A stretch of 20,000 nt of DNA from an uncultured virus (IMG/VR IMGVR_UViG_3300042508_000149) (Duplodnaviria; Heunggongvirae; Uroviricota; Caudoviricetes). Below, piece after piece: positions 1-20,000 of this stretch (its first letter is position 1; every line of letters starts with the position of its first letter). Under the pieces are notes generated by a model that saw only the letters and a program-made list of their open reading frames with translations, searched no databases and was not told the origin of the DNA. Both the position numbers and the translations under genes were made by a program. The stretch is from the IMG/VR virus record IMGVR_UViG_3300042508_000149; one strand, given 5' to 3'.

Positions 1-1800
1 GCCTCTGTGTCGGAATCGATATCTACGGCGGTGAGCGTATCAGAGTCAACTAGCAAATCAGTTTCGCTATCCCAAAGTATTTCAGCTTCAACAAGCACGT
101 CACAATCGATCTCTAAATCAACATCGTTGTCGCAAAGTTTAAGCACATCTGTTTCACAAAGTGAATCAGTATCAAAATCAACAAGCCTTTCTACTTCACT
201 TAGCAATTCAATATCAGCATCCATAAGCACTTCAGAGGCGGTTTCCAAATCAGTTTCTTTTTCACAAAGCGTTAGTTTGTCAACGTCTCAAAGCGAGTCG
301 GTATCTAAAGCAACAAGCATTTCGGCTTCTGTAAGCGCATCGACCTCGGCATCAACATCACAAAGTATTAGTTTGTCGCAGGAAGTAAGCAAACAGATCG
401 CAATATCGCAGAGCACATCGCAAAGCATAGCCCTGTCGCAAAGCCTCTCTCAATCGCAGGCGGTATCGGTTTCTGCGTCCGTTTCAGAGTCTGTATCTAA
501 GTCAGTCAGCACATCGCTTTCACTCAGCCAGTCAACATCTGCCGCGCTAAGCACATCTGTATCCCAAAGCCTTATCCTCAGTCAAAAAATGAGCGAAGAT
601 ATTGTTCGTGGCCTATCAATATCCGCATCGCTAAGCGCGTCCGAATCAGTCTCTCAATCAGTATCGAGATTGGTCTCTGCTTCTATTAGCACAAGCCAAT
701 CCGCTTCAACGTCGCTATCTCTTTCCGAGTCAATTTCAAAAGCAACGCAACTATCTATCTCTAATAGCTTGAGTGCTTCTACTTCTGTCAGTCAGTCACA
801 GTCATTATCTGCTTCACAGTCTGTGTCAAAAGCTCTATCTCAAAGCGTAAGTCAATCGCTTTCTTTAAGCGAGTCAGTCGCTCAAAGCATTAGCCAGTCA
901 TTATCACTATCAGCTCTCCAGTCACAGTCATTAAGTGTTAGCGAACAAATTGAGAGAGATAGGGCGGTTGGTATATCAATTTCCAATTCATTAAGTCAAT
1001 CAGTATCGTTAGAGGCTAGCAAGTCACAGTCAATTTCAATTAGCACATCGACCCAGCAGTCAATCAGCAACTCGGTGTCTTTGTCAGAAAGCGTTTCAAT
1101 ATCAACATATTTAAGCCAAGAAGTTTCGAGGCAGACATCGCTTAGTCAATCCCTTAGCACGGCAAATAGCTTGTCATTGAGCTTGTCACAAAGCCAATCG
1201 CTAAGCCAAAGCCTGTCACAGACACAGACTGTTTCTATTACCCCTTCAATTACACAGACGGTTTCGGTTACGGAAACCATTTCACCAACGGCAACGGTAG
1301 CCCCGTCAGTCACTGAATCAATCACTCAGACGGTTACGCAATCGGTCACTGAATCAATTACTGAGGTAGTCACACAAAGCCTTACTGAGACACTGACGCC
1401 AAGCATTACCGCAACGATCACTCAGTTGCCAACATTAGCGCCAACAATTACAGCTTCAGCAACCATTACTCCAAGTATTTCTGTAACGGAGACATTTACG
1501 CAAACGCCATCGCTAACGATGGTTATCACGACCACATCGTTGCCGCCTGTAACGACAACGATTACCATCCCTCTGGTAACGACTACGGAGCCTGTAACCA
1601 CGGAGCAAGTAACGACGATTACCATACCTCCGGTTACGCCTCCTCCAACTTCAGGAACGATACCCCCTGTAACGACGCCAGCGATTAGCATCCCCGAGCA
1701 AACAACAACCGCGCCAGTGACCACATTACCAGTCACAACGGCGCCGGTTATATCAGCAACAACAACATCAAAGCCACCGACGACTACATCAAAGCCTGGT
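1..1800 (+). repeat. Protein-level low-complexity repeat: S-X tract (about 1-1220), T-X tract (about 1220-1530), PT/TT mucin-like tract (about 1530-1800)
   Basis: Seen directly in the translation, with recurrent sub-motifs SQS, SESVSK and PPVTT. The DNA is not an exact tandem repeat because synonymous codons vary. Confidence 0.9.
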
Positions 1801-2064
1801 GGTTTGCCTTTCCCAGTATTTGGTATTCCAGCCGCCACCGGGCAGCAGAAAACTTACGTTGATTACGCACAGCCCAACGTGCTAGCACCAGAGTTTGGGC
1901 CATTTGATTTATTCAAGGCGCCCAGCTACTTGCGTCCTTTGCAAGATACTGGCAACTTTGGGTTAGCCGCACTATTAGGAGCCGCAAATGCGAAGCAGTC
2001 GGGGGATGGGAATAATCAATCCCAGCAAAATGCCGAAGGCCAAGGTCAAGCCCCGAAGGGATGA
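1..2064 (+). CDS. Serine-rich repeat / mucin-like protein (5' truncated by window edge); probable virion-associated protein
   Basis: Frame is open from base 1 (GCC TCT GTG TCG = A S V S), so the true start lies upstream. About 400 aa of S-X dipeptides, then T-X dipeptides, a Pro/Thr-rich segment and a non-repetitive C-terminus. Stop TGA at 2062-2064. Co-oriented with the structural genes. Confidence 0.8.
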   Translation, partial: ASVSESISTAVSVSESTSKSVSLSQSISASTSTSQSISKSTSLSQSLSTSVSQSESVSKSTSLSTSLSNSISASISTSEAVSKSVSFSQSVSLSTSQSESVSKATSISASVSASTSASTSQSISLSQEVSKQIAISQSTSQSIALSQSLSQSQAVSVSASVSESVSKSVSTSLSLSQSTSAALSTSVSQSLILSQKMSEDIVRGLSISASLSASESVSQSVSRLVSASISTSQSASTSLSLSESISKATQLSISNSLSASTSVSQSQSLSASQSVSKALSQSVSQSLSLSESVAQSISQSLSLSALQSQSLSVSEQIERDRAVGISISNSLSQSVSLEASKSQSISISTSTQQSISNSVSLSESVSISTYLSQEVSRQTSLSQSLSTANSLSLSLSQSQSLSQSLSQTQTVSITPSITQTVSVTETISPTATVAPSVTESITQTVTQSVTESITEVVTQSLTETLTPSITATITQLPTLAPTITASATITPSISVTETFTQTPSLTMVITTTSLPPVTTTITIPLVTTTEPVTTEQVTTITIPPVTPPPTSGTIPPVTTPAISIPEQTTTAPVTTLPVTTAPVISATTTSKPPTTTSKPGGLPFPVFGIPAATGQQKTYVDYAQPNVLAPEFGPFDLFKAPSYLRPLQDTGNFGLAALLGAANAKQSGDGNNQSQQNAEGQGQAPKG

Positions 2065-2263
2065 CACGGACTTTACGCAATACGCGGAGGGAGGCAAGGT
2101 GAATGAAGCTGGTAATTACACCAAGCCAACCATGCGTAAAAAACTTTTTAATCAGATTAAGAGCGCCGCTGTTCAAGGTACCGGCGCTGGAAAATGGTCA
2201 GCCAGAAAAGCACAGCTCTTGGCTAAGCGTTACAAAGAGCGTGGCGGCGGGTATACTTCATGA
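1988..2263 (+). CDS. Small basic phage protein; C-terminal half resembles the N-terminal half of DUF5872-type proteins
   Basis: AGGAG RBS at 1977-1981, ATG at 1988. Motifs YAEGG, NYTKP and GKWSARKAQLLAKRYKERGGGY. ATGA overlap with the next gene. Confidence 0.8.
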   Translation: MRSSRGMGIINPSKMPKAKVKPRRDDTDFTQYAEGGKVNEAGNYTKPTMRKKLFNQIKSAAVQGTGAGKWSARKAQLLAKRYKERGGGYTS

Positions 2264-4082: not shown

Positions 4083-4343
4083 ATGGCCAAGTATTCAATG
4101 AAGCAGGGCGGCAAAGAAGTCGGTCCTGCATCGGTATACGCTGAACCGCATACCATGGCGGGCGCAAAAGTTGTTGCATCGCCAAACCCCGGCAAAGAGA
4201 TGCCCTATAACATGGTGAAGGATTGGCAACCGACCCATGGTGTAGCCATGAACCCCAATAGTCAAGTGAAGACTTCTGGTATTAAGATGCGTGGTGCCGG
4301 GGCTGCGACCAAAGGTACGATGTGCCGGGGTCCAATGGCTTAA
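4083..4343 (+). CDS. Small basic hypothetical phage protein
   Basis: 86 aa, starting 3 nt after the previous stop. N-terminal MKQGG and C-terminal GIKMRGAGAATKG motif, of a kind seen in small structural-module proteins of aquatic phages. Confidence 0.75.
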   Translation: MAKYSMKQGGKEVGPASVYAEPHTMAGAKVVASPNPGKEMPYNMVKDWQPTHGVAMNPNSQVKTSGIKMRGAGAATKGTMCRGPMA

Positions 4344-8328: not shown

Positions 8329-9527
8329 TGAACTCATTGCAGCCATCGGCGTTTAACCTTGCGCCACCGCCGACGCTGCAATGGCAGCCGGTACAAATAA
8401 ATAATTTTTACGCCGTAGCTGGAAGAGCCTACCCAGTCAATACGACAAGCGGAGTAATTACAGCAACGCTGCCACTTGATCCTTCTCCTGGCGACTTGGT
8501 CACTTTTACTGATTATGCTGGAACCTTTGCTACGAATGGGTTATCCATCAATCCAAACGGGTCAAAAATAAATGGCGCAGCAACTCTTTTTAGCGTTGTT
8601 GGGAAAAGGCAGTCTGTACAAATTGTTTACACAGACGAAACACAAGGCTGGATAACATATGCAGCCGTATCCTCAGAAGTTCTTTTTGGTCCTCCTGCCA
8701 CGGTAGAAGTTCTGGTTGTTGCTGGCGGCGCATCTGGTGGTACTTCATACGGCGCTGGCGGCGGCGCTGGTGGCTATCGAACAAACTCATCTTTCTCAGT
8801 TGCCGCTGGAACAAGCTATACCGTTACCGTTGGTGGTGGCGGCGCAGCGAGAACATCCGGCTCCGCTCAAGGGGCCAATGGCTCAGATTCCGTTTTTAGT
8901 ACCATTACATCTTCTGGCGGTGGCGGTGGCGGGCCAGTCAATAATAACGGATCAAATGGAGGCTCAGGCGGCGGTGGGGGTGGCTGGATTAGCGCTCCTG
9001 CTGGAGCTGGCGGATCAGGAAATACACCTTCCACATCACCAAGCCAAGGTAATAATGGGGGCGCTGGATTTACTGGTGGTGGGAATCGTGGTGCTGGTGG
9101 TGGTGGTGGCGCTGGGGCTGTTGGAACTGCTGGTAATACAACGTCAGGTGGAGCAGGAGGTAATGGATCGGCCAACTCAATAACAGGTCCTTCTGTCACT
9201 TATGCAGGTGGCGGAGGCGGTGGAAATATTGGCTCTGGAAATCCTGCGTCTGGTGGAACAGGGGGTGGTGGAACAGGAGGCGGAACCGGAACATCGGGTA
9301 CAGCAGGTACTGCTAACTTAGGCGGTGGCGGTGGTGGAACAGGTGATATTTCCGGCGGAAGCGCGAGTGGTGCTGGTGGTAGTGGTGTAGTAATTATTGC
9401 CTATCAAAGTTCCTTTGCTAATTTAACATCAATAGGCGCAGGGCTGACTTATTCGCTTGATACCTCAACACGCTCTGGATACAAAGTTTATAAGTTTACT
9501 GCCGGAACTGGCACGATCTCATGGTAA
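8328..9527 (+). CDS. Glycine-rich domain protein (tail-fibre tip / adhesin-like)
   Basis: N-terminal Y.VNTTSG.IT.TLP..PS.GD.V...DYAGTF domain, then VEVLVVAGG.SGG, GAGGGAGGY, YAGGGGGG, ANLGGGGGG and GGSGVVII motifs characteristic of phage Gly-rich domains. Confidence 0.8.
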   Translation: MNSLQPSAFNLAPPPTLQWQPVQINNFYAVAGRAYPVNTTSGVITATLPLDPSPGDLVTFTDYAGTFATNGLSINPNGSKINGAATLFSVVGKRQSVQIVYTDETQGWITYAAVSSEVLFGPPATVEVLVVAGGASGGTSYGAGGGAGGYRTNSSFSVAAGTSYTVTVGGGGAARTSGSAQGANGSDSVFSTITSSGGGGGGPVNNNGSNGGSGGGGGGWISAPAGAGGSGNTPSTSPSQGNNGGAGFTGGGNRGAGGGGGAGAVGTAGNTTSGGAGGNGSANSITGPSVTYAGGGGGGNIGSGNPASGGTGGGGTGGGTGTSGTAGTANLGGGGGGTGDISGGSASGAGGSGVVIIAYQSSFANLTSIGAGLTYSLDTSTRSGYKVYKFTAGTGTISW

Positions 9528-10117
9528 CTCACGGTCTTTTTGCTCAACCCGTAAGCATGTTTGAACGTCAAATTACTGACGAGGAAAAAGCATTGATTAT
9601 GGGCTTAGACACAAGGCCAAATATGGGGAACATGACATCAACAGATAATTTCGTTTTACGTCGCACCGGCCTTACTGATTTACGATCATGGATTGAGGAT
9701 TGTATTGCTGAATATTTCAAAGCAACTGTCAATCCGAGACATGATGTAAGTTTGAGAGTCACGCAAAGCTGGGTGAACTATAGCGACCAAGGTCAATACC
9801 ACCACAAACATGCTCATCCTAATTCGTTGGTTTCTGGCGTGTTTTACGTGCAAACAAATCCTGATGACCGCATCTATTTTTATCGCGCAGGCTATCAGCA
9901 AATCAAACTGCCTACATTGGAGTGGAATACATGGAACTCTGAAAGCTGGTGGTTTGAGGCTATTACGGGGCGATTGATTTTATTCCCTTCAAGTCTTGAA
10001 CATATGGTTCCAACGGTTGAGGGTGAACAGACTAGAGTTTCTCTATCGTTCAATACGTTTCCGGTTGGCATGGTGGGCGAGGAAATGGATTTAACTGGGC
10101 TAAGGCTGGAGGCATAA
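9521..10117 (+). CDS. Putative 2OG-Fe(II) oxygenase (TIGR02466-like)
   Basis: SWVN....G.YHHKHAHPNSLVSGVFY, GRLILFPSSLEHMV and R.SLSFN give an HxH...H metal triad and an RxS 2-oxoglutarate-binding motif of the double-stranded beta-helix fold. Confidence 0.85.
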   Translation: MVTHGLFAQPVSMFERQITDEEKALIMGLDTRPNMGNMTSTDNFVLRRTGLTDLRSWIEDCIAEYFKATVNPRHDVSLRVTQSWVNYSDQGQYHHKHAHPNSLVSGVFYVQTNPDDRIYFYRAGYQQIKLPTLEWNTWNSESWWFEAITGRLILFPSSLEHMVPTVEGEQTRVSLSFNTFPVGMVGEEMDLTGLRLEA

Positions 10118-11565: not shown

Positions 11566-12077
11566 AGACCGGGCAGGCTGGCATTGACTTGATGCACAGT
11601 TTTGAAGGTAAGAGTCTTAAACCTTATTTATGCCCTGCTCATATTTGGACGATTGGTTACGGCCACGTTTTATACCAAGATCAGATCAAGTTACCTGTAT
11701 TGAGGAAAGATGGCTATACCGGCATCCTTCGCAAGGACTACCCGCTCGCAGCCCAAGATAATCGCGCTTGGACGCAAGAGGAGATTGATCGCCTTTTTGA
11801 GGATGATCTCGTCCGTTTTGAACGCAGTGTTCTTAGAATGTCTCCTAATCTTGCTGGCCGTCAGTCAAGCTTCGACGCTGTGGTCAGTTTTGCGTTCAAC
11901 GCTGGACCTGGGCGTTATCAAAGCTCTACGATAAGAATGAAGAACAATCGCGGTGACTATGAAGGCGCAGCAGAAGCGTTTATGATGTGGACTATGGGCG
12001 GCGGCAAAGTGTTACCGGGATTGGTGCGCCGCCGCAGAGCTGAAAAAGCGTTGTACCTACGGGGTGAATTTAAATGA
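11562..12077 (+). CDS. Phage lysozyme / endolysin (GH24 family); start revised to ATG 11562
   Basis: FEG.SLKPYLCPA.IWTIGYGH gives an E-x8-C-x5-T catalytic triad. Also FDAVVSFAFN.G and W..GGGKVLPGLVRRR.AE..LY. ATGA overlap with the holin stop. Confidence 0.92.
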   Translation: MKTGQAGIDLMHSFEGKSLKPYLCPAHIWTIGYGHVLYQDQIKLPVLRKDGYTGILRKDYPLAAQDNRAWTQEEIDRLFEDDLVRFERSVLRMSPNLAGRQSSFDAVVSFAFNAGPGRYQSSTIRMKNNRGDYEGAAEAFMMWTMGGGKVLPGLVRRRRAEKALYLRGEFK

Positions 12078-12759
12078 GTCCTTTGCGTTTGTCCCAGTAC
12101 GCTTTCTTGGCCGCAGCTAATTTAGCGCGGTATTCAGGTGTATCAAAAGCAGCGCGTTTAGCCGCATACTCAGGTGAAGCCATCGTTGCCTTAAGGCGTT
12201 CTTTACGTTGGGCTAGAGCTACTGGGTCGGACATTTTTTCTCTGCGTTTGCCTTGTGCGTCTCGGATACCTTCAATCCGTTTGGCATCGAACTCGGGGTC
12301 TTTGCCGTTGCGCTCTCCCCAAGACTTCATGTGTTCATTCTTTAATAAATTTGCACGCAACACTTCTTTTGTTGACTCTGTGAGATCTCGTGTTTTACCA
12401 ACTCTTGGGTCTATGGTTGCAGTTCGGTACTCAGGTGTTTTCCAAAGATCAACAAGTTTTTGTTTTGTTTCGTCACTGGTTTTATGAAACTCACCACCAG
12501 CAGATATATTGGTCAAAGTACCGCCGTCCCTGATGCGGCCAAACTTTGCTATGAACATTTGCTCCATGGACTTAGCTTCATCGGCGTTTGCAACAGTATG
12601 TATTTCAACAACAACCGAATCAGCTCCAAGATCAGCAAGTTTTTGCAAACATCCTTTGTTGCGATGGCACTTTGCCTTGGGGTTAGTCCTTCCAAGGGTG
12701 CTACCCATGCCAACATAAAAAGGGACGCCATTTGGGTCTTTCCAAATATAAACGTACAT
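12070..12759 (-). CDS. Free-standing GIY-YIG (homing) endonuclease, 229 aa; start revised from 13026 to ATG 12759
   Basis: MYVYIWKD....PFYVGMG....R, conserved E (EAKSMEQMFI) and N (LTNISAGGE), followed by NUMOD3-like TSDETKQKL / LTESTKEVLR and a basic helical tail. GGAGA RBS lies 5 nt upstream of the ATG on the - strand. Confidence 0.85.
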   Translation of the reverse strand: MYVYIWKDPNGVPFYVGMGSTLGRTNPKAKCHRNKGCLQKLADLGADSVVVEIHTVANADEAKSMEQMFIAKFGRIRDGGTLTNISAGGEFHKTSDETKQKLVDLWKTPEYRTATIDPRVGKTRDLTESTKEVLRANLLKNEHMKSWGERNGKDPEFDAKRIEGIRDAQGKRREKMSDPVALAQRKERLKATMASPEYAAKRAAFDTPEYRAKLAAAKKAYWDKRKGLI

Positions 12760-12794
12760 GGTGTTCTCCGTGTTAAGGTAGGAGAATTTTAGCA
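12760..12794. promoter_or_regulatory. Divergent control region: two opposed RBSs forming an inverted repeat plus a candidate extended -10 promoter for the endonuclease
   Basis: TTCTCC (12764-12769) and GGAGAA (12781-12786) form an inverted repeat with an 11-nt loop. The - strand reads TGcTAAAAT (complement of 12786-12794), a TGn plus 5/6 match to TATAAT. Confidence 0.5.
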
Positions 12795-14941
12795 TGCCAT
12801 TGCAAAAAATACTTGCAAAACCAGGATGCAATCGCGAAAACACGAGATACACCAACGAAGGTGGGTGGTACTCATCAGATAAGGTGCGTTTTCGCCAAGG
12901 AACGCCAGAAAAGATTGGCGGGTGGGCGCGTATCTCTGTCAATACTTTCCTTGGAACATGCCGATCATTATGGAACTGGGTGACTCTGACAGCCAACAAT
13001 CTGATGGGCGTTGGAACCAGTGACAAATACTATATAGAGAGCGGTGGCGCATACAATGACATAACGCCGTTGCGGCAATATAACTACACGGCCACGCTGA
13101 CCAATCCTTTTAGTACAACGAGTGGCGATGCAACTGTGTCGGTGAGTGACACGGCGCATGGTGCAACGGCAGGCGATCTTGTTTATTTTTCCGGTGCCAC
13201 CACGGTAGGCGGCATTCCGGCGGCTGAACTAAATACACGTCATGTCATTACGTCCATTACTGACGCAAACACGTATGTAATTACTGTCACTACAACGGCA
13301 TCGAGTACAGCCTCTGGCGGAGGAACGGTTACCGCCGAGTATTACATTGATGCTGTATTGCTTGGGAACAATCCTTTTGCAACGACAAACGGATCTACCA
13401 CGGTTACCGTCACTGCTGCTACACATGGCGGACAGACAGGCGACTACGTTACGTTTTCAGGTGCGACAACAGTTGCCGGACTGGATCTGAATAACGAATA
13501 CAAGATTACAGTAACCAATGCAAGCGCCTATACCATCACTGCTGCAACGGCCGCCAATGCCACAACCAGCGGCGGCGGGTCTTCCGTCAGGGCTGAGTAT
13601 CAAATAACCATCGGCCCCGCCTCTCAAGTGGCGCAAGTTGGCTGGGGCGCAGGCGGGTGGGGTTCTGGCCTTTGGGGTGGTGTTGGTGTTTTTGTGCCAG
13701 ATGCTATGCGCCTTTGGTCGGCTATGAATTTTGGAGAGGATTTGGTATTTGGTCCTCGTGGCGGTGGCGTCTATTACTGGGATGCAACCAATGGATTGCC
13801 AACACGTGGCGTCAATATTGAAACGCTACCAGGCGCATTAGACACGCCGGTAATTCAAAACCTAGTTTTTGTTTCAGATATTTATCGGTTTGTGTTTTGC
13901 TTTGGCGCAAATGATACTGGTACTACGACACAAGATCCTATGCTCATACGCTGGGCTGACCAGGAGTCTGTAACAGATTGGCTCCCATCTGCCGCCAATC
14001 AGGCTGGATCGCTGCGCCTTTCTCATGGGTCAAAGATTATTGCTGTCGCACAAACACGCCAAGAGATCTTGGTATGGACGGACACGGCGCTTTATTCCTT
14101 GCAATACCTAGGCGCTCCTCTTGTATGGGGTGCTCAATTGCTGGGCGACAACATCTCCATTGTTGGCCCTAATGCAGTATCGGTCGCTACGGGCATAGCC
14201 TTCTGGATGGGTGTTGATAAGTTTTATATGTATGACGGACGGGTGCAAACGCTTCAATGCGACCTGCGTAAATACGTTTACCAAGATATAAATTCCACGC
14301 AGTATCTCCAATACTTCTCTGGCACCAACGAGGGGTTCAATGAGATATGGTGGTTTTACGCATCGGCTAGCAGCAACGATATTGATAGGTACGTTGTCTA
14401 CAATTACCTTGAGCGTATTTGGTATTACGGCACTATGGCCAGGACCGCTTGGGTAGATGCTGGGTTGCGTGATTATCCAGTGGCCGCTACCTACAGCAAC
14501 AACTTGGTAAATCATGAGTATGGTAACGACGATAATGTTACTGGAGAGCCGCAAGCAATTAATGCTTACATAGAATCAGCAGAGTTTGATATTCAAGACG
14601 GCCACAATATTGGTTTCGTATGGCGCGTTCTGCCGGATATTACGTTCAGCGGAACCAGCCAATCTAATCCAAATCCAGCGGTAACCATGACGCTTATCCC
14701 GATGATGAACTCAGGATCTGGATATAACAGTCCGCAGTCTCTTGGTGGATCAAGCTCGGCGGCGGTTGCTCGCACAACGACGACCAACATAGAGCAGTTT
14801 ACTGGGCAGGTGTATGTAAGGGTGCGTGGCCGCCAGTTAATCTTTAAGGTTGAGTCAACAGACCTTGGCAGTGCATGGCAACTTGGATCTCCGCGGTTCG
14901 ATATCCGTGGGGACGGTAGAGCTACCGGGAGAGGTGCGTGA
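12794..14941 (+). CDS. Tail nozzle / tail tubular protein B-like (DNA stabilisation) protein with two inserted repeat domains
   Basis: AGGAG RBS at 12780-12784. 715 aa; N-terminal EGGW...DKVRFRQG.PEKIGGW, propeller-like aromatic beta repeats (GVYYWD, PMLIRWADQE, EILVWTD, AFWMG, FNEIWWFY) and C-terminal RVRGRQ...W.LG.PR.D. Precedes the ejection genes. Confidence 0.75.
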   Translation: MPLQKILAKPGCNRENTRYTNEGGWYSSDKVRFRQGTPEKIGGWARISVNTFLGTCRSLWNWVTLTANNLMGVGTSDKYYIESGGAYNDITPLRQYNYTATLTNPFSTTSGDATVSVSDTAHGATAGDLVYFSGATTVGGIPAAELNTRHVITSITDANTYVITVTTTASSTASGGGTVTAEYYIDAVLLGNNPFATTNGSTTVTVTAATHGGQTGDYVTFSGATTVAGLDLNNEYKITVTNASAYTITAATAANATTSGGGSSVRAEYQITIGPASQVAQVGWGAGGWGSGLWGGVGVFVPDAMRLWSAMNFGEDLVFGPRGGGVYYWDATNGLPTRGVNIETLPGALDTPVIQNLVFVSDIYRFVFCFGANDTGTTTQDPMLIRWADQESVTDWLPSAANQAGSLRLSHGSKIIAVAQTRQEILVWTDTALYSLQYLGAPLVWGAQLLGDNISIVGPNAVSVATGIAFWMGVDKFYMYDGRVQTLQCDLRKYVYQDINSTQYLQYFSGTNEGFNEIWWFYASASSNDIDRYVVYNYLERIWYYGTMARTAWVDAGLRDYPVAATYSNNLVNHEYGNDDNVTGEPQAINAYIESAEFDIQDGHNIGFVWRVLPDITFSGTSQSNPNPAVTMTLIPMMNSGSGYNSPQSLGGSSSAAVARTTTTNIEQFTGQVYVRVRGRQLIFKVESTDLGSAWQLGSPRFDIRGDGRATGRGA

Positions 14942-15579: not shown

Positions 15580-16515
15580 ATGGCGGATGATATCTACAGC
15601 GACTACGACCTAGAAAACACAAGCGATCCGTACGGTACTGGTAGCACGGATTATGGTGGCTTGGATATAGGAACCACGTCAGGTGGTGGTACTAACTGGT
15701 CATCCATATTTGGTGGCGATAATATCCTCACCAGATTCTTGTCAGGGAATGCTACTGGTGGCGATAAGGCGCTAGCAACACTTGGTTTCGGAATAGCATC
15801 ACTTGTTTCTGCGCTAAGAAACAAACCGCCGGCAGTGAAGATGCCCGTCTACAAAGAAGCCCCGGTATATAACCGCGCTCTTACTGCGCCCATGCTTCCC
15901 CCGCAGCCGGCCCCACAGAAGTCTGCTTCTGGGCAAAACATCTACCAGCCCATGGTTGGGTTGCCATTGTTCTTTAACCCCAATCCTTTCCAGTTCAATC
16001 CTACGGAAGCTGCGAAACGATACGGCCCTACACAGCAAGAAATCGCAGCAGGTCAACAAGGTTATTCACAGGGACTTGAGCGTTTATATCAGTCATTAGG
16101 TACGCAGCCTGGTATTGCTTTTGACTCTGGCGCAGCGACCGGTAATACAACTACCGGAGGAACGGACACTTCCGGCGGCGGCTTGGCAGGCGGGGGCTCT
16201 ATAGACGATATATTGGTTGGTTATGCTGAGGGCGGTGATGTTGCGGAGGGAAGGTATTTACGTGGTGCAGGCGACGGTATGTCTGATGACATCCATGCAT
16301 TTATTGATGGCGGATCTACCGGTGAGCATCAGCCTGCGCGTCTTGCACGCAATGAGTTTGTGATACCTGCTGATGTGGTATCAGATCTTGGTAATGGTTC
16401 ATCCGATGCTGGGGCAGAAGCGTTGTACGAAATGATGGAGCGTGTACGCAAAGCCAGGCATGGAACGGATAAGCAGCCGCCTGCGGTTAAACCAAGTAAG
16501 GTGATGCCTGCATGA
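15580..16515 (+). CDS. Putative internal virion / ejection protein with conserved C-terminal G.GDG.SD.I.A...EFV module
   Basis: GGAG RBS upstream. Low-complexity N-terminal part; C-terminal YAEGG..GRYLRGAGDGMSDDIHA...PARLARNEFVIPADVVSDLGNGSSDAGA..LY.MM.RVR. Confidence 0.6.
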   Translation: MADDIYSDYDLENTSDPYGTGSTDYGGLDIGTTSGGGTNWSSIFGGDNILTRFLSGNATGGDKALATLGFGIASLVSALRNKPPAVKMPVYKEAPVYNRALTAPMLPPQPAPQKSASGQNIYQPMVGLPLFFNPNPFQFNPTEAAKRYGPTQQEIAAGQQGYSQGLERLYQSLGTQPGIAFDSGAATGNTTTGGTDTSGGGLAGGGSIDDILVGYAEGGDVAEGRYLRGAGDGMSDDIHAFIDGGSTGEHQPARLARNEFVIPADVVSDLGNGSSDAGAEALYEMMERVRKARHGTDKQPPAVKPSKVMPA

Positions 16516-16880
16516 CACCTTTTGATCAAGAGTGGAATAGGTGTAGCCAGTGGCTACAGGCCGCGCTTGATCATGCAGGGAACTTGTTTTCGTTAGATGA
16601 TGTAAAGGCTGCTGTACTAAGGGGTGAGGCGATCTTCCTGCCGGGTTTAGACGCAGCGGTTATTGCAGAGATTCGGGTCTACCCGCAGAAAAAGATTTAC
16701 AACTGCTGGCTTGCTGGCGGTAGCTTAGAGGAACTCAAGCTTGCCTTTGCGCCTGCTGTACGCTGGTATGCAAAGAAGGCTGGATGTGATGCAATTACGA
16801 TCCAAGGACGACCCGGTTGGCGGCGTGTATTTAACATGCGTGAGCGGGGCGTAGTCTTAACTGAAGAGGTGGTCAAATGA
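16512..16880 (+). CDS. GNAT-fold (acetyltransferase-like) protein of the ejection module
   Basis: ATGA-coupled on both sides. EI..YP.KK....WLAGG.L.EL.......YAKKAGC..I.IQGR.GW.R pattern. Confidence 0.55.
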   Translation: MTPFDQEWNRCSQWLQAALDHAGNLFSLDDVKAAVLRGEAIFLPGLDAAVIAEIRVYPQKKIYNCWLAGGSLEELKLAFAPAVRWYAKKAGCDAITIQGRPGWRRVFNMRERGVVLTEEVVK

Positions 16881-17626
16881 GCCTGGGCGGACCTTCAACA
16901 ACTGTTACGCAAAGCGCACCAGAGTATCAACTTCCGTATATCTCTGACCTGTATCGCATGGGTCAGCAGATTGCCTATACACCCTATACGCCATACACGG
17001 CGCCAAGGACAGCCGAGACATCCGGCTTGTACCAGCAAGGCGTTGAAGCTGCACAGCAAACCGCCATGGCGCCCGGCATTCTTGGCAACATCAATGTAGG
17101 TGGCCAGAACGTCGGTGTCATGCAGGCTTACATGAATCCTTACCAACAAGCGGTAACGGATGTGGCCAAGCAGGCGGCAGTGCGCGACTATCAGACGGGT
17201 CTTACTAACTTACGTAGTCAGGCTGCATCACGTGGTGCGTTTGGCGGTTCTCGCCAGGCGATCATGGAATCAGAGGCCATGCGTAATTTAGGTACACAAC
17301 TTGGCAATATTCAAATGCAGGGATCTGCCGCGGCGTTTGACAAGGCAGGCCAGCTTTACCAGCAAGATCTTGCGTCTCAACAGCAGAAGGCGCAGACCTT
17401 GCAGCAGCTTGGATTAGCAGATGAGGCAAGACGCCAGCGCGATCTTGATCTGATGTATCAGGAGTTTGAGAAGCAGCGTCTTTATCCACAGACGCAGGCA
17501 GAGGCTTATAAGTCAATTATCTTTGGCCAGCAGCAGTCGCCCACGGCGTCTTACTACAATGCGCCGGCCAACCCATTTGTGCAAACGCTTGGTCTTGCTG
17601 GATTGCTGTACGGAGGAATGCGATGA
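16877..17626 (+). CDS. Putative DNA transfer / ejection protein
   Basis: GAGG RBS upstream. Gln/Ala-rich helical protein with STTVTQ..PEY..PY, YMNPYQQAV, GAFGGSRQAI and a hydrophobic Gly-rich C-terminus (LGLAGLLYGG). Confidence 0.65.
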   Translation: MSLGGPSTTVTQSAPEYQLPYISDLYRMGQQIAYTPYTPYTAPRTAETSGLYQQGVEAAQQTAMAPGILGNINVGGQNVGVMQAYMNPYQQAVTDVAKQAAVRDYQTGLTNLRSQAASRGAFGGSRQAIMESEAMRNLGTQLGNIQMQGSAAAFDKAGQLYQQDLASQQQKAQTLQQLGLADEARRQRDLDLMYQEFEKQRLYPQTQAEAYKSIIFGQQQSPTASYYNAPANPFVQTLGLAGLLYGGMR

Positions 17627-19179
17627 CTACAACCATGGCTCAACCGGGCCTAGCCCCAGACATTAACTTGTTTGAGGCAATGGATATCTTCAAGAACTTT
17701 CCTGATGAAGAGCTTCCTAACTATCGCAACGATCCTAAGCTAGCCCTTGTTGCAGCCGCCGAGATGGATCGGCGTTTGCGTATCCGCAAGGATTTTGAAG
17801 CTAAGCAGCAAAAGCCTTCTGGCCCGATTATTGATCAGCTACAACAGCAGTTGCTTGCACCGCCGCAACCCATGGGTCAGCCTATGCAGCCCATGGCACA
17901 ACCTATGGCTCAGCCTGAGATGCAGCAACCACAACAAGGTCTCGGGGCGCTTGTTCCTGGTATGGCGCAGGGCGGTCCAGTTGCGTTTCAGTTTGGCGGC
18001 TTGCTAGCGGACCCAAGGTCAGGCATATACCCAAAAGAAACTGACGAAGATCGCAAGCGCAAGGCAGCAGAGCGACTTGCCCAAGTAGAACAGCAGTTAA
18101 AGAACCCTAACCTTCCCGGTCAGGCTAGCGCTATCCTTGCAACAGAAGCTGCAAATCTTAGAAAAGAGGTTGCTGCTGAGCAACCTAAACCTGCTCCTGC
18201 AAAAGAGCAGCCTAAGCCTGCTGAGCAAGGCGCTGACATCAATTCGCTCATCGCTCAATTAGCAAAGCTTCAGCAGGCACAGCAGCAACCCGCTGCACCC
18301 GCCCCAGTGGATCTCAAGGGATTAGAAAGGCTCGCTTCTGCTTTTATGCCCGCCCAAGTTCCTGTCATGTCCATGGAGGAAAGGCGCAAGCAGGCAGAGG
18401 AAGAAGAAAAGTACTTAAAACAAAAATTTCCTGACACAGTCAGTCCTTTGGCCGATCAGCTAGCCGCAGAGGTTGGTCAGCAAGTATCTCCCGAAGAAGC
18501 AAAGCGCCGAGCCTTCATGAAGGCTGGTATCGCTGGTCTTGGTTACACAGGCCGCGACTTTGGCGCTGGTCTTGCCGGTATGCTTGAAGGATACGAAGGC
18601 ACAAAGCAATCTGTTGAAGCTGCAAACAAAGAAGCTAAGACACTTGCACTGAAAGCACGTCTTGCCAATGAGCAGTACAAAGACGCGATCAAGCGGAAGG
18701 ATTATGAATCTGCACGTAAGTACGCAGATGAAGCCGCGGAAATTCAGGCTGCTAAAGTAGAGGCTCAGAACAAAGCCAAGCTTGGGAAGCTCGGTGTTAT
18801 GGGTGCCATGCAGGATCTTATGACGCCTAAGAAGGCGGCTGGGGCTGGAGCAACTTCCGGCATGCCAAAGTTTGGAGATGCTGCACGCATTCGCAAAGAT
18901 GCTGTTGAGGCTGCACAGCCAGAGTTGCGAGATCTTGAGAAACGCTACGATGAAGAATCTAGCCGGTTCCATTCGGCCCTTGGATTTGGGAAGCGTGGTA
19001 CAAGCTGGCGTAACGATCCAAAAGAGATGGCTAAATTTGAGAGTGAGAAAGAAAACATCATTCAAAAATATGAGAGGCGCCTGTATCCTACGGTTGGCGC
19101 AGATCAGGGTGTAACAACGCTGACGCCGCAAATGATGGAAGCAATTAGGGAATACGTTAAAAAACAAAGCGGCAAATAG
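17623..19179 (+). CDS. Putative internal virion / ejection protein (helical, coiled-coil)
   Basis: GGAGG RBS upstream, ATGA overlap. 518 aa, A/E/K/Q-rich, with QPM repeats, MAQGG / FQFGG motifs and a Gly-rich hydrophobic hairpin (AGIAGLG...FGAGLAG). Confidence 0.6.
   Translation: MTTTMAQPGLAPDINLFEAMDIFKNFPDEELPNYRNDPKLALVAAAEMDRRLRIRKDFEAKQQKPSGPIIDQLQQQLLAPPQPMGQPMQPMAQPMAQPEMQQPQQGLGALVPGMAQGGPVAFQFGGLLADPRSGIYPKETDEDRKRKAAERLAQVEQQLKNPNLPGQASAILATEAANLRKEVAAEQPKPAPAKEQPKPAEQGADINSLIAQLAKLQQAQQQPAAPAPVDLKGLERLASAFMPAQVPVMSMEERRKQAEEEEKYLKQKFPDTVSPLADQLAAEVGQQVSPEEAKRRAFMKAGIAGLGYTGRDFGAGLAGMLEGYEGTKQSVEAANKEAKTLALKARLANEQYKDAIKRKDYESARKYADEAAEIQAAKVEAQNKAKLGKLGVMGAMQDLMTPKKAAGAGATSGMPKFGDAARIRKDAVEAAQPELRDLEKRYDEESSRFHSALGFGKRGTSWRNDPKEMAKFESEKENIIQKYERRLYPTVGADQGVTTLTPQMMEAIREYVKKQSGK
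17866..17937 (+). repeat. Short QPM-type peptide repeat (QPMGQPMQPMAQPMAQPEMQQPQQ)
   Basis: Imperfect CA(A/G)CC(C/T)ATG units in the DNA, visible in the translation. Confidence 0.7.
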
Positions 19180-19187
19180 GGGGCGAA

Positions 19188-20000
19188 ATGCCTATCGTAA
19201 ACATCCCCAACCTTGGGCGGTTCCGCATTCCCGAGGGTGTATCCGATGAAGAGCGTGATCAGCTAATCCGTGGTTTAGTGGATATGTCCGGGGTCCAGCC
19301 CAAAGGACCGCAAGGGATTGGAGAAGTATTTAGCAACGCTGTTGCCAGAGGTGCCAAGCAAATGCTTGTGGGCACAGCATATGATTTGCCTGCTCTAGGA
19401 TTAGCTGGCCTTGCAAAGCTAGGCTTTGGTGGTGCAGAAGAGAAAGCACTGGAGTTTTTAGGAAAAGGCGCCCAGCGTTATGCGGCTATTGAGCAGGAGC
19501 TTCCCACTCAATATAGAGATGTAACCAAGCTAGAAGGCCCTGGCCAATACCTTGGTTTTGCGGTTGAGCAGGCTGGCCAAGGTTTGCCTAGTATTGCTTC
19601 TGCCCTGCTGCCTGGCGGTATTGCGGCCGCCACCGGGCGGGGTGCTTCAAGGAAGATTGCACAAGAAGCGGCAGAGACAGCCCTACGCAGCGGTGTCACC
19701 AGAGAGGTTGCTGAGCGCATAGGCGAGAAGGCTGCACAGGATGCACTTGCTGGCCGCGCCGGATTGGCGATGATGAGTTCATCGTATCTACAGACAGCGC
19801 CAGAATCATTCCGCAATATCTTTGAAGAAACAAAACAGCTAGAGCCTGGTCTTGCGTTGGCCACGGGCTTGGCTAACTCATTCATCGAGAGTTATATACC
19901 CGGCAAGATCCTTGGCGATCTTGGTCTGTATGGCCGCACCAAGCTAGTAGAGAAAGCCCTTGAGCGTGGTGGCTTTACCAAAGAAGCACTGCGTATCGGT
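19188..20000 (+). CDS. N-terminus of a large internal virion / ejection protein (3' truncated; not in supplied ORF track)
   Basis: AGGGGG RBS upstream, ATG 19188, frame open for 271 codons to the window end. MPIVNIPNLGRFRIPEGVSDEE... followed by Gly/Ala-rich hydrophobic helices, as expected for the largest ejection protein. Confidence 0.75.
   Translation, partial: MPIVNIPNLGRFRIPEGVSDEERDQLIRGLVDMSGVQPKGPQGIGEVFSNAVARGAKQMLVGTAYDLPALGLAGLAKLGFGGAEEKALEFLGKGAQRYAAIEQELPTQYRDVTKLEGPGQYLGFAVEQAGQGLPSIASALLPGGIAAATGRGASRKIAQEAAETALRSGVTREVAERIGEKAAQDALAGRAGLAMMSSSYLQTAPESFRNIFEETKQLEPGLALATGLANSFIESYIPGKILGDLGLYGRTKLVEKALERGGFTKEALRIG

Follow-up and report, generated by a model that had tools for sequence, protein, structure and literature searches.

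A 2,417-residue phage protein with a serine-rich stalk, its probable affiliation to ejection proteins and a candidate mucin-type glycosyltransferase

Gene context and architecture of the giant protein

The window, the whole stretch of 20,000 nucleotides analysed here, corresponds to C1:16369-36368 (minus strand) of a virus record of 46,412 nt with a completeness of 73% (CheckV). It begins with a single open frame of 687 codons on the plus strand (1-2064) whose 5' end is open. The start codon, in the recovered upstream sequence, precedes the window by 5,189 nt (C1:41558), and the complete ORF encodes a protein of 2,417 amino acid residues (C1:34305-41558, minus strand; L001:4306-11559, minus strand), in the following termed the giant. 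The initial annotation had described an ORF of at least 687 aa with S-X dipeptides, T-X dipeptides and a Pro/Thr stalk; this ORF is confirmed as the end of a real gene. Upstream of the giant are encoded the major capsid protein, a GIY-YIG endonuclease and small basic proteins. Adaptors, tail fibres, a lysozyme, the nozzle, ejection-type proteins and finally a polyvalent protein of 2,084 aa follow downstream (Table 1). This copy of the giant precedes the adaptor, and the position in clade A is beside the capsid genes and outside the ejection cluster. According to the adaptor, the closest cultured phages are HTVC023P, DSL-LC04 and CRP-901/902 (38-45% identity). HTVC023P-type and CRP-901/902 podophages resemble this genome in the adaptor and have a similar gene order but the adaptor-side slot of HTVC023P and CRP-902, unlike that of this genome, holds no annotated giant. 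The source runs of the stretch represent chiefly lakes, lagoons, rivers and aquaculture. A host search in GTDB matched merely contigs of 50-61% identity, in two unrelated MAGs, and a promoter scan gave a result at chance level.

Table 1 Features of the giant and of neighbouring genes. Positions refer to the window unless prefixed, residues to the giant
Feature	Residues	Position	Strand	Basis
Giant, C-terminal 687 aa		1..2064	+	ORF and recovered upstream sequence
Giant, upstream part: small helical repeats; short PTTT stalk	150-175 (PTTT stalk)
Giant, conserved core: alpha/beta part, then Gly/Ala-rich hydrophobic hairpin	~250-430 (~250-345; ~345-400)
Giant, helical region	after the hairpin
S-X tract (591 aa)	1548-2138 (in window: 1731-2138)	1..1224	+	Ser phase count
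T-X tract (105 aa)	2139-2243	1225..1539	+	in-phase Thr 33 + Ser 14 of 52
Thr/Pro mucin-like stalk (87 aa)	2244-2330	1540..1800	+	T 34%, P 22%
Conserved C-terminal motif, DYAQP subtype of the clade-wide P[NS]YLRP..G[LI]xAL		1801..1986	+	relatives
Small basic gene with own Shine-Dalgarno sequence, phrog_17747		1988..2263	+	AGGAG at 1977-1981
311-aa protein with C-terminal AxGG / G-x-G-D-G-x-S-D (GDG) domain, a tape-measure C-terminal motif		15580..16515	+
249-aa putative DNA-ejection protein (gp7-like)		16877..17626	+	phrog_4287 (E 7e-5)
2,084-aa polyvalent ejection-type protein, start (ART-PolyVal, LPD39, PLxRFG)		19188..20000	+
324-aa PF11397 GT60-like glycosyltransferase		C1:10011-10985 = L002:10011-10985	plus	Pfam

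The giant consists of a non-repetitive part (aa 1-1547), a long Ser/Thr-rich stalk and a tail of 87 aa (aa 2331-2417). With 866 residues of S/T-rich sequence it stands apart from the runner-up among the 179 ORFs compared (141 residues). The motif at its C-terminus is a candidate packaging or anchoring element. Hydrophobic segments were found at aa 354, 377 and 1153 (KD 1.4-1.65), and the sequence shows no evident signal peptide. The giant and the small basic gene overlap by 77 nt, as first described. Because the latter has its own AGGAG, the last ~25 residues of the giant are a by-product of the overlap; for the same reason a frameshift or read-through fusion was rejected.

Authenticity of the locus and age of the S-X tract

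Serine-rich repeat (SRRP) adhesins carry a KxYKxGKxW signal peptide and a C-terminal LPxTG wall anchor. Neither motif matched anywhere in the full 2,417 aa by regular expression, nor did the NCBIfam models for the anchor and the signal, and the recovered N-terminal part, which includes the core, is likewise free of KxYKxGKxW. No 19-mer beyond aa 1171 reaches KD 1.3, in line with the initial description of a protein devoid of LPxTG and transmembrane anchor. Beside the giant no GtfA/GtfB or accessory Sec gene was found, the neighbours being phage genes, and PF00534 and PF00535 had no match in the record (73% complete). The NCBIfam models NF033849 and MSCRAMM gave compositional matches, all far under the cut-off. 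The likeness to Gram-positive adhesins noted at the outset thus holds for the S-X composition and fails for LPxTG, KxYKxGKxW, accessory Sec and GtfA, and an identity as such an adhesin was rejected.

An assembly chimera is refuted by three observations. One is the 8,180-nt match of contig L003 to G000 (96.3%), which runs from the tract across the junction and the adaptor into the tail genes. A contig from an independent run bridges the junction at 1900-2100 and revealed no chimeric join. The third is the presence of an S-X giant on 17 other contigs. All 30 bins of the region are covered by contigs from four runs, each of a different study; RNA-library contigs among them are no proof of transcription. 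Among 80 adaptor-bearing relatives, 67 have an ORF of at least 200 aa in the slot before the adaptor, 41 of them complete (1,207-2,849 aa). An S-X tract of at least 100 aa occurs in 17 of these 67 ORFs, and all 17 fall in the 25 with a DYAQP-type C-terminus (0 of the 42 others). These relatives, the morphogenesis neighbours, L003 and the independent contig together support the original view that the giant is phage-encoded. A 58-kb metagenome contig (L309) also bears an S-X giant, and five more long contigs end short of the adaptor.

Within the S-X tract, serine is found 231 times in one phase and 23 times in the other, a bias equalled in 0 of 10,000 shuffles; in the first 408 residues of the window alone it occupies 172 of 204 positions of one phase. 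The X residues are predominantly L, V, Q, T and I. Tandem Repeats Finder (TRF) detected merely five short arrays, none longer than 69 nt, and Ser is encoded by all six of its codons, which led us to reject a recent DNA tandem expansion. Ten pairs of relatives were compared by phase. L003 and L006 are nearly identical to the giant and the alignments of five more divergent pairs are possibly out of register, leaving three moderately diverged relatives as informative. Against L266, L289 and L306, identity was 100/120, 111/119 and 109/120 in the Ser phase and 62/119, 85/119 and 88/119 in the X phase, respectively, and Ser was retained across TCN/AGY codon switches. The few tandem repeats, the use of six Ser codons and the conservation of the Ser phase above the X phase indicate an old tract under selection.

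Affiliation with ejection proteins

Direct profile searches with the giant yielded one sub-threshold match in Pfam, none in PHROGs and only compositional matches under the cut-off in NCBIfam. Its conserved core defines a family of 343 representatives (E ≤ 0.001). Since S-X, T-X or PTS tracts are present in just 19 of the 150 representatives listed, the stalk is accessory. In a distant subfamily of 80 loci, the core gene follows directly after the nozzle in 53 and after a longer nozzle in 3; a nozzle is not visible in 16, and 8 show another order. The core gene is located there mostly ahead of the homologues of the GDG-domain and gp7-like proteins (Table 1) and frequently carries the GDG domain itself as a fusion, a domain also fused to giant homologues in other clades. 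The GDG domain matched the tape-measure protein gp16 (PDB: 8ZDO) with an E-value of 1.6e-10, and 7 of 12 members matched PHROG tape-measure families. The 'DNA ejection' family phrog_598 was detected at the C-terminal end in 2 of 70 scanned representatives, and six further locus proteins and P0128 returned no hit.

A structural model of the core (pLDDT 73.8, pTM 0.46) consists of an alpha/beta part plus helical hairpins. At E ≤ 0.001, Foldseek matched the model to no entry of PDB or BFVD, and the best VIA hit (Z = 6.1) lies on a short helical piece; the model thus assigns the core neither to a new nor to a known fold. The base of the core tree is poorly supported, so that one origin of S-X tracts is indistinguishable from several.

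The synteny of the family after the nozzle and the fusions with tape-measure and ejection domains suggest that the giant is probably an internal, ejected protein and no surface fibre. Of the two locations considered in the initial annotation, internal protein and filamentous decoration, the former is therefore the better supported. The giant resembles P22 gp7/gp20/gp16, T7 gp14-16 and tape-measure proteins in the position of its family, in its Gly/Ala-rich hydrophobic helices and in the fusion of its homologues to phrog_598 and to the tape-measure motif. In contrast to these podophage proteins, it has no direct profile or fold match, has moved beside the capsid genes, is hypervariable in length (1,207-2,849 aa) and carries a mucin-like stalk. 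We consider it a displaced member of an internal ejection set.

A GT60-like glycosyltransferase in the same genome

The initial annotation had suggested a search for phage glycosyltransferases elsewhere in the genome, and one was found. A protein of 324 aa, encoded on the strand opposite to the giant ~5.4 kb past the end of the window and ~23 kb past the end of the giant, affiliates with PF11397 (E 4e-57; 194.6 bits against a cut-off of 21) and with phrog_24687. Residues D91/H93 and E205/E206 are invariant among 46 homologues, and we take them to fill the roles of the DxH and GEE motifs of ppGalNAc-T-like GT-A enzymes. In the structural model (pLDDT 90.6) the first strand begins at residue 3, which leaves no room for a leader or a transmembrane helix in the predicted protein. 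The top matches listed by Foldseek were all polypeptide GalNAc-transferases (E 3e-10, TMq ~0.52-0.63); a ricin/lectin domain is absent, and the transferase profile matched no sequence in PDB. The enzyme looks intact and, as modelled, folds like polypeptide GalNAc-transferases. The likely enzyme for the giant is a GT-A mucin-type (GT60-like) transferase and not a GtfA/B.

PMC8724618 describes GT60 enzymes as initiating mucin-type O-GlcNAc in Dictyostelium and Trypanosoma cruzi. The phage protein shares with these CAZy GT60 enzymes and with the GT27 ppGalNAc-transferases the PF11397 domain, the DxH/GEE motifs and the ppGalNAc-T fold, again with no lectin domain. It differs in its length of 324 aa and its predicted solubility, with no Golgi anchor, and its donor and acceptor are predictions. 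Other phage GT-A enzymes hypermodify DNA and adjoin 5mYOX/methyltransferase or ThyS genes, according to bioRxiv 2023.12.21.572611; its main text does not mention GT60, and its supplementary tables may name related enzymes. No base-modification gene was found among the flanking ORFs scanned in our record (73% complete, ~27% missing).

Co-occurrence of stalk and enzyme

Wherever both loci are visible, S-X tracts occur only alongside the PF11397 enzyme. In clade A, this applies to the single enzyme-bearing (GT+) genome (G000), whereas none of the five enzyme-free genomes (G011, G038, G023, G020 and G040) has an S-X tract; the direct table gives p = 0.17. Of 19 relatives retrieved in this clade, two were too short to show the slot behind the polyvalent gene; 6 of the other 17 carry the enzyme gene there as a clean insertion of ~920 nt. 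The GT+ genome G006 overlaps L016 at 99.98% over 5,117 nt. L016 bears the DYAQP / S-X-type C-terminus; its contig stops short of the stalk, and its nearest relatives, L266 and L008, have S-X. Looser overlaps agree, pairing GT+ G044 with S-X-bearing L064 (93%) and GT-negative G077 with L025/L027, which are free of S-X. GT+ genomes form one clade for the gene of the 249-aa ejection protein and are mixed for the exonuclease and the nozzle; the presence of the transferase hence tracks the alleles of ejection genes and neither of the other two.

In clade B (80 loci, 66 analysed with a nozzle end) the enzyme is encoded between the nozzle and the giant in 17 loci, and only 7 of the 14 junctions between both genes stay in frame with no further stop, which also speaks against a read-through fusion. 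S-X tracts are present in 5 of 7 GT+ and in 0 of 21 slot-negative loci with a complete giant (28 in total); because two of these five are near-duplicates and all GT+ loci belong to one subclade, the nominal p of 2e-4 is too favourable. The near-complete genomes G052, G053 and G054 of this clade were searched as whole records and gave no PF11397 match. In G047 from clade C, a GT60 gene follows the portal and the giant has 307 aa of T-X.

Counter-cases exist as well. Two of the seven complete GT+ giants of clade B have no S-X tract, and GT+ G048 and G074 bear merely shorter Thr-rich stretches. T-X or PTS stalks occur without PF11397 in several records, including the complete G095, G099 and G123. 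A Pfam scan of 63 ORFs (170-900 aa) from G099 and G123 detected no glycosyltransferase, G109 has a GT2 after the portal in place of PF11397, and 0 of 49 further records, most of them fragments, matched PF11397. As S-X is absent from all 80 loci concerned, only the link between the enzyme and S-X survives. The GT+ genomes form one subclade per clade and the core tree is weak at its base; the counts are therefore not independent and rest on few lineages. A hydroxyproline route via the 2OG-Fe(II) oxygenase (9521-10117) is unsupported, the gene being present in GT+ and GT-negative genomes alike.

Proposed function and alternative readings

A mucin-type enzyme of its own and a long Ser/Thr stretch suggest that the virus may sugar-coat its injection machinery. 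We propose, at roughly even chances, that the giant is a head-internal, ejected protein whose Ser/Thr stalk is O-HexNAc-glycosylated in the host cytoplasm by the GT60-like enzyme; stalk glycosylation by this enzyme, taken by itself, we also consider evenly balanced. The soluble transferase would take host UDP-HexNAc and modify the alternating Ser/Thr residues, the sugar probably being alpha-GlcNAc. Such a coat would keep the alternating polar/hydrophobic, aggregation-prone tract soluble, extended and protease-resistant. The giant would be packaged with the other ejection proteins via its conserved C-terminal motif and be ejected upon infection, when the Gly/Ala-rich hairpin would enter the envelope and the stalk would act as a hydrated tether or brush at the entry site. 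Fully extended, the stalk of 783 aa would span ~260-300 nm, far more than the thickness of the envelope. The stalk of the polyvalent protein may be modified too. In a more far-reaching version, to which we give less than an even chance, freshwater podophages build a glycosylated ejectosome: a single GT60 would coat hundreds of Ser/Thr residues on injected proteins and thereby plant a mucin of ~0.3 micrometres at the entry site, with enzyme and substrates inherited as a split module that survives tail-region recombination between them.

An unlikely but serious alternative is that the giant is internal and ejected while its stalk is an unmodified low-complexity spacer. The enzyme would then act elsewhere, on the polyvalent protein or on host proteins, and its co-segregation with S-X would reflect a fit to the same ejection alleles. 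Just past the window the polyvalent protein has a 185-aa Pro/Val/Thr stalk (its aa 336-520) with 20 Thr and 7 Ser, and Pro-flanked Thr is the classic mucin-type acceptor. The transferase gene overlaps the 3' end of the polyvalent gene on the opposite strand, and GT+ alleles of the polyvalent protein are more Pro-rich (maximum 0.33-0.38 versus 0.22-0.28 per 60 aa, in records covering the stalk). This stalk may therefore be a rival or second acceptor. The stalks of complete relatives with no detected glycosyltransferase and the scarcity of such tracts in the core family point in the same direction. Against a mere spacer, the clade B enzyme lies directly before the giant and away from the polyvalent gene, S-X was seen in no GT-negative record, and Ser is kept through TCN/AGY switches.

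It is improbable that the giant forms an external glycosylated filament, a 'phage mucin' anchored to head or neck by its C-terminal motif and serving as a hydrated brush that aids adhesion, slows sinking or protects from grazers. Such a filament would agree with the capsid-adjacent genes around the clade A copy, with an order of tip, stalk and anchor that recalls surface proteins, with hypervariable N-termini, one of which (L054) bears a GDSL hydrolase, and with the known phage glycans, located on capsid and tail tube (PMC12619734, citing Freeman 2023). However, homologues have their place in the ejection cluster, with fusions to tape-measure or DNA-ejection domains, Pfam, PHROGs and NCBIfam detect no fibre, Ig or lectin domain in the giant, and the core is modelled as alpha/beta plus helical hairpins.

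Still less probable is a non-virion protein held by its hydrophobic hairpin on or in the envelope of the infected cell, for superinfection exclusion or as an anti-predator coat. Besides the three hydrophobic segments, weak DUF4214-like repeats in relatives (E ~1e-3, under the cut-off) fit such a protein, as does one of two weak leads among the Atlas rows for the giant, DUF637 (0.90, low recognition), the other being crAss cargo (0.81). The missing signal peptide and the location in a morphogenesis operon speak against it, and the synteny and fusions of the family indicate a virion protein. A chimera or captured bacterial adhesin, for which only the compositional NF033849 and MSCRAMM matches speak, or a DNA-modifying enzyme unrelated to the giant, as the DNA-hypermodifying phage GT-As might suggest, is highly improbable given the 17 S-X contigs with the giant in the same slot, the contig bridging the junction, the resemblance of the enzyme fold to peptide transferases, the GT60-free main text of the preprint and the base-modification genes absent from the ORFs scanned.

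Relation to known glycosylation systems

The glycosylation we propose for the giant has a parallel in the SRRP adhesins, which share the long S-X dipeptide tract and, if the proposal holds, a cytoplasmic cognate O-GlcNAc transferase (PMC8498110). In contrast to them, the giant lacks KxYKxGKxW, LPxTG, accessory Sec and the GT4 enzymes GtfA/B. Its gene is one of phage morphogenesis, the sequence outside the repeats places it in a phage ejection family, and its candidate enzyme is a GT-A (PF11397). Modification of own virion proteins by phage-encoded glycosyltransferases is known from mycobacteriophages (PMC12619734 and PMC11600133, citing Freeman 2023), where the sources describe tandem glycosyltransferases acting on the C-termini of capsid and tail-tube proteins. 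Here, a single mucin-type enzyme, hundreds of sites and an internal, ejected protein are proposed instead. Phage-encoded virion glycosylation as such is therefore known, and the mucin-type coating of an injected protein would be new. Neither a GT60 phage enzyme nor a glycosylated ejection protein was found in the full-text literature, in which subscription journals are mostly uncovered.

If the proposal is true, the mucin-type modification of an injected protein would bring a post-translational layer into DNA delivery, and mucin-type O-glycosylation, described so far from eukaryotes, would extend to phages. A soluble candidate polypeptide HexNAc-transferase of 324 aa, with an acceptor of several hundred sites, could also serve as a glycoengineering tool. 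Such glycosylation would further give a job to the PF11397 genes of viral contigs, in which this domain is common (at least 616 confirmed stretches).

Motif and domain fusions in virion-region genes

In a raw motif count, the pattern [YFM]-x-x-G-G was present in seven genes of this virus, in some of them in two or three copies. The pattern is similar to the beginning of the tape-measure C-terminal motif and, judged from sequence, may represent a head-packaging signal. In relatives, a GDSL/SGNH hydrolase domain is fused either to the N-terminus of a giant (a homologue of this virus's Ser/Thr/Pro-repeat protein) or to a protein with the tape-measure-type GDG domain, and these fusions suggest deacetylation of envelope polysaccharides.

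Accessory genes in this virus and other phages

In phage G109, a GT2-family transferase follows the portal gene, the slot occupied in the clade C phage G047 by GT60, the PF11397 glycosyltransferase; G109 also encodes a giant with PTT repeats and a cassette of epimerase, PfkB and kinase genes. G048 and G074, both complete GT60 phages and unrelated, carry Thr/Pro-rich stretches within ejection-type proteins, and in larger unrelated phages GT60 homologues adjoin (G/T/S)n- or PTNT-repeat proteins (L162, L169, L172, L177, L184).

Between nozzle and giant, some clade B phages encode a FabF-like ketoacyl synthase that may acylate ejection proteins. In some relatives an HNH-like ORF is inserted directly behind the stop codon of the giant, probably also in L008 and L266. 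The basic ORF between lysozyme and nozzle in the window had no Pfam match and by eye looks like a homing endonuclease. Lastly, the stalk-bearing, PF11397-free relative G099 encodes both an adenylosuccinate-synthetase-like protein and an HD phosphohydrolase, a pair typical of phages with 2-aminoadenine (Z) DNA.

Locations of the features discussed
Feature	Location	Remark
[YFM]-x-x-G-G genes	window 1988-2263, 4083-4343, 15580-16515, 17623-19179	
[YFM]-x-x-G-G genes	L001:11569-13234	three, upstream of giant
GDSL/SGNH-giant fusion	L054:1749-8453	
GDSL/SGNH-GDG fusion	L488:12335-14440	
GT2 and epimerase/PfkB/kinase (G109)	L490:3075-3830 and L488:674-3626	
Thr/Pro-rich stretch	G048 16965-20276	L338/L339
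Thr/Pro-rich stretch	G074 20189-21910	L351
FabF-like gene	L193:9639-10751	profile match, E 2e-29 (L193 copy)
Similar to L193 gene	L194, L214, L233, L234, L249, L252-L254, L256, L260	
HNH-like ORF	L016:240-600	
Basic ORF, 318 aa	window 12070-13026	minus strand
Adenylosuccinate-synthetase-like and HD phosphohydrolase genes (G099)	L483:13393-14598 and 16292-16852
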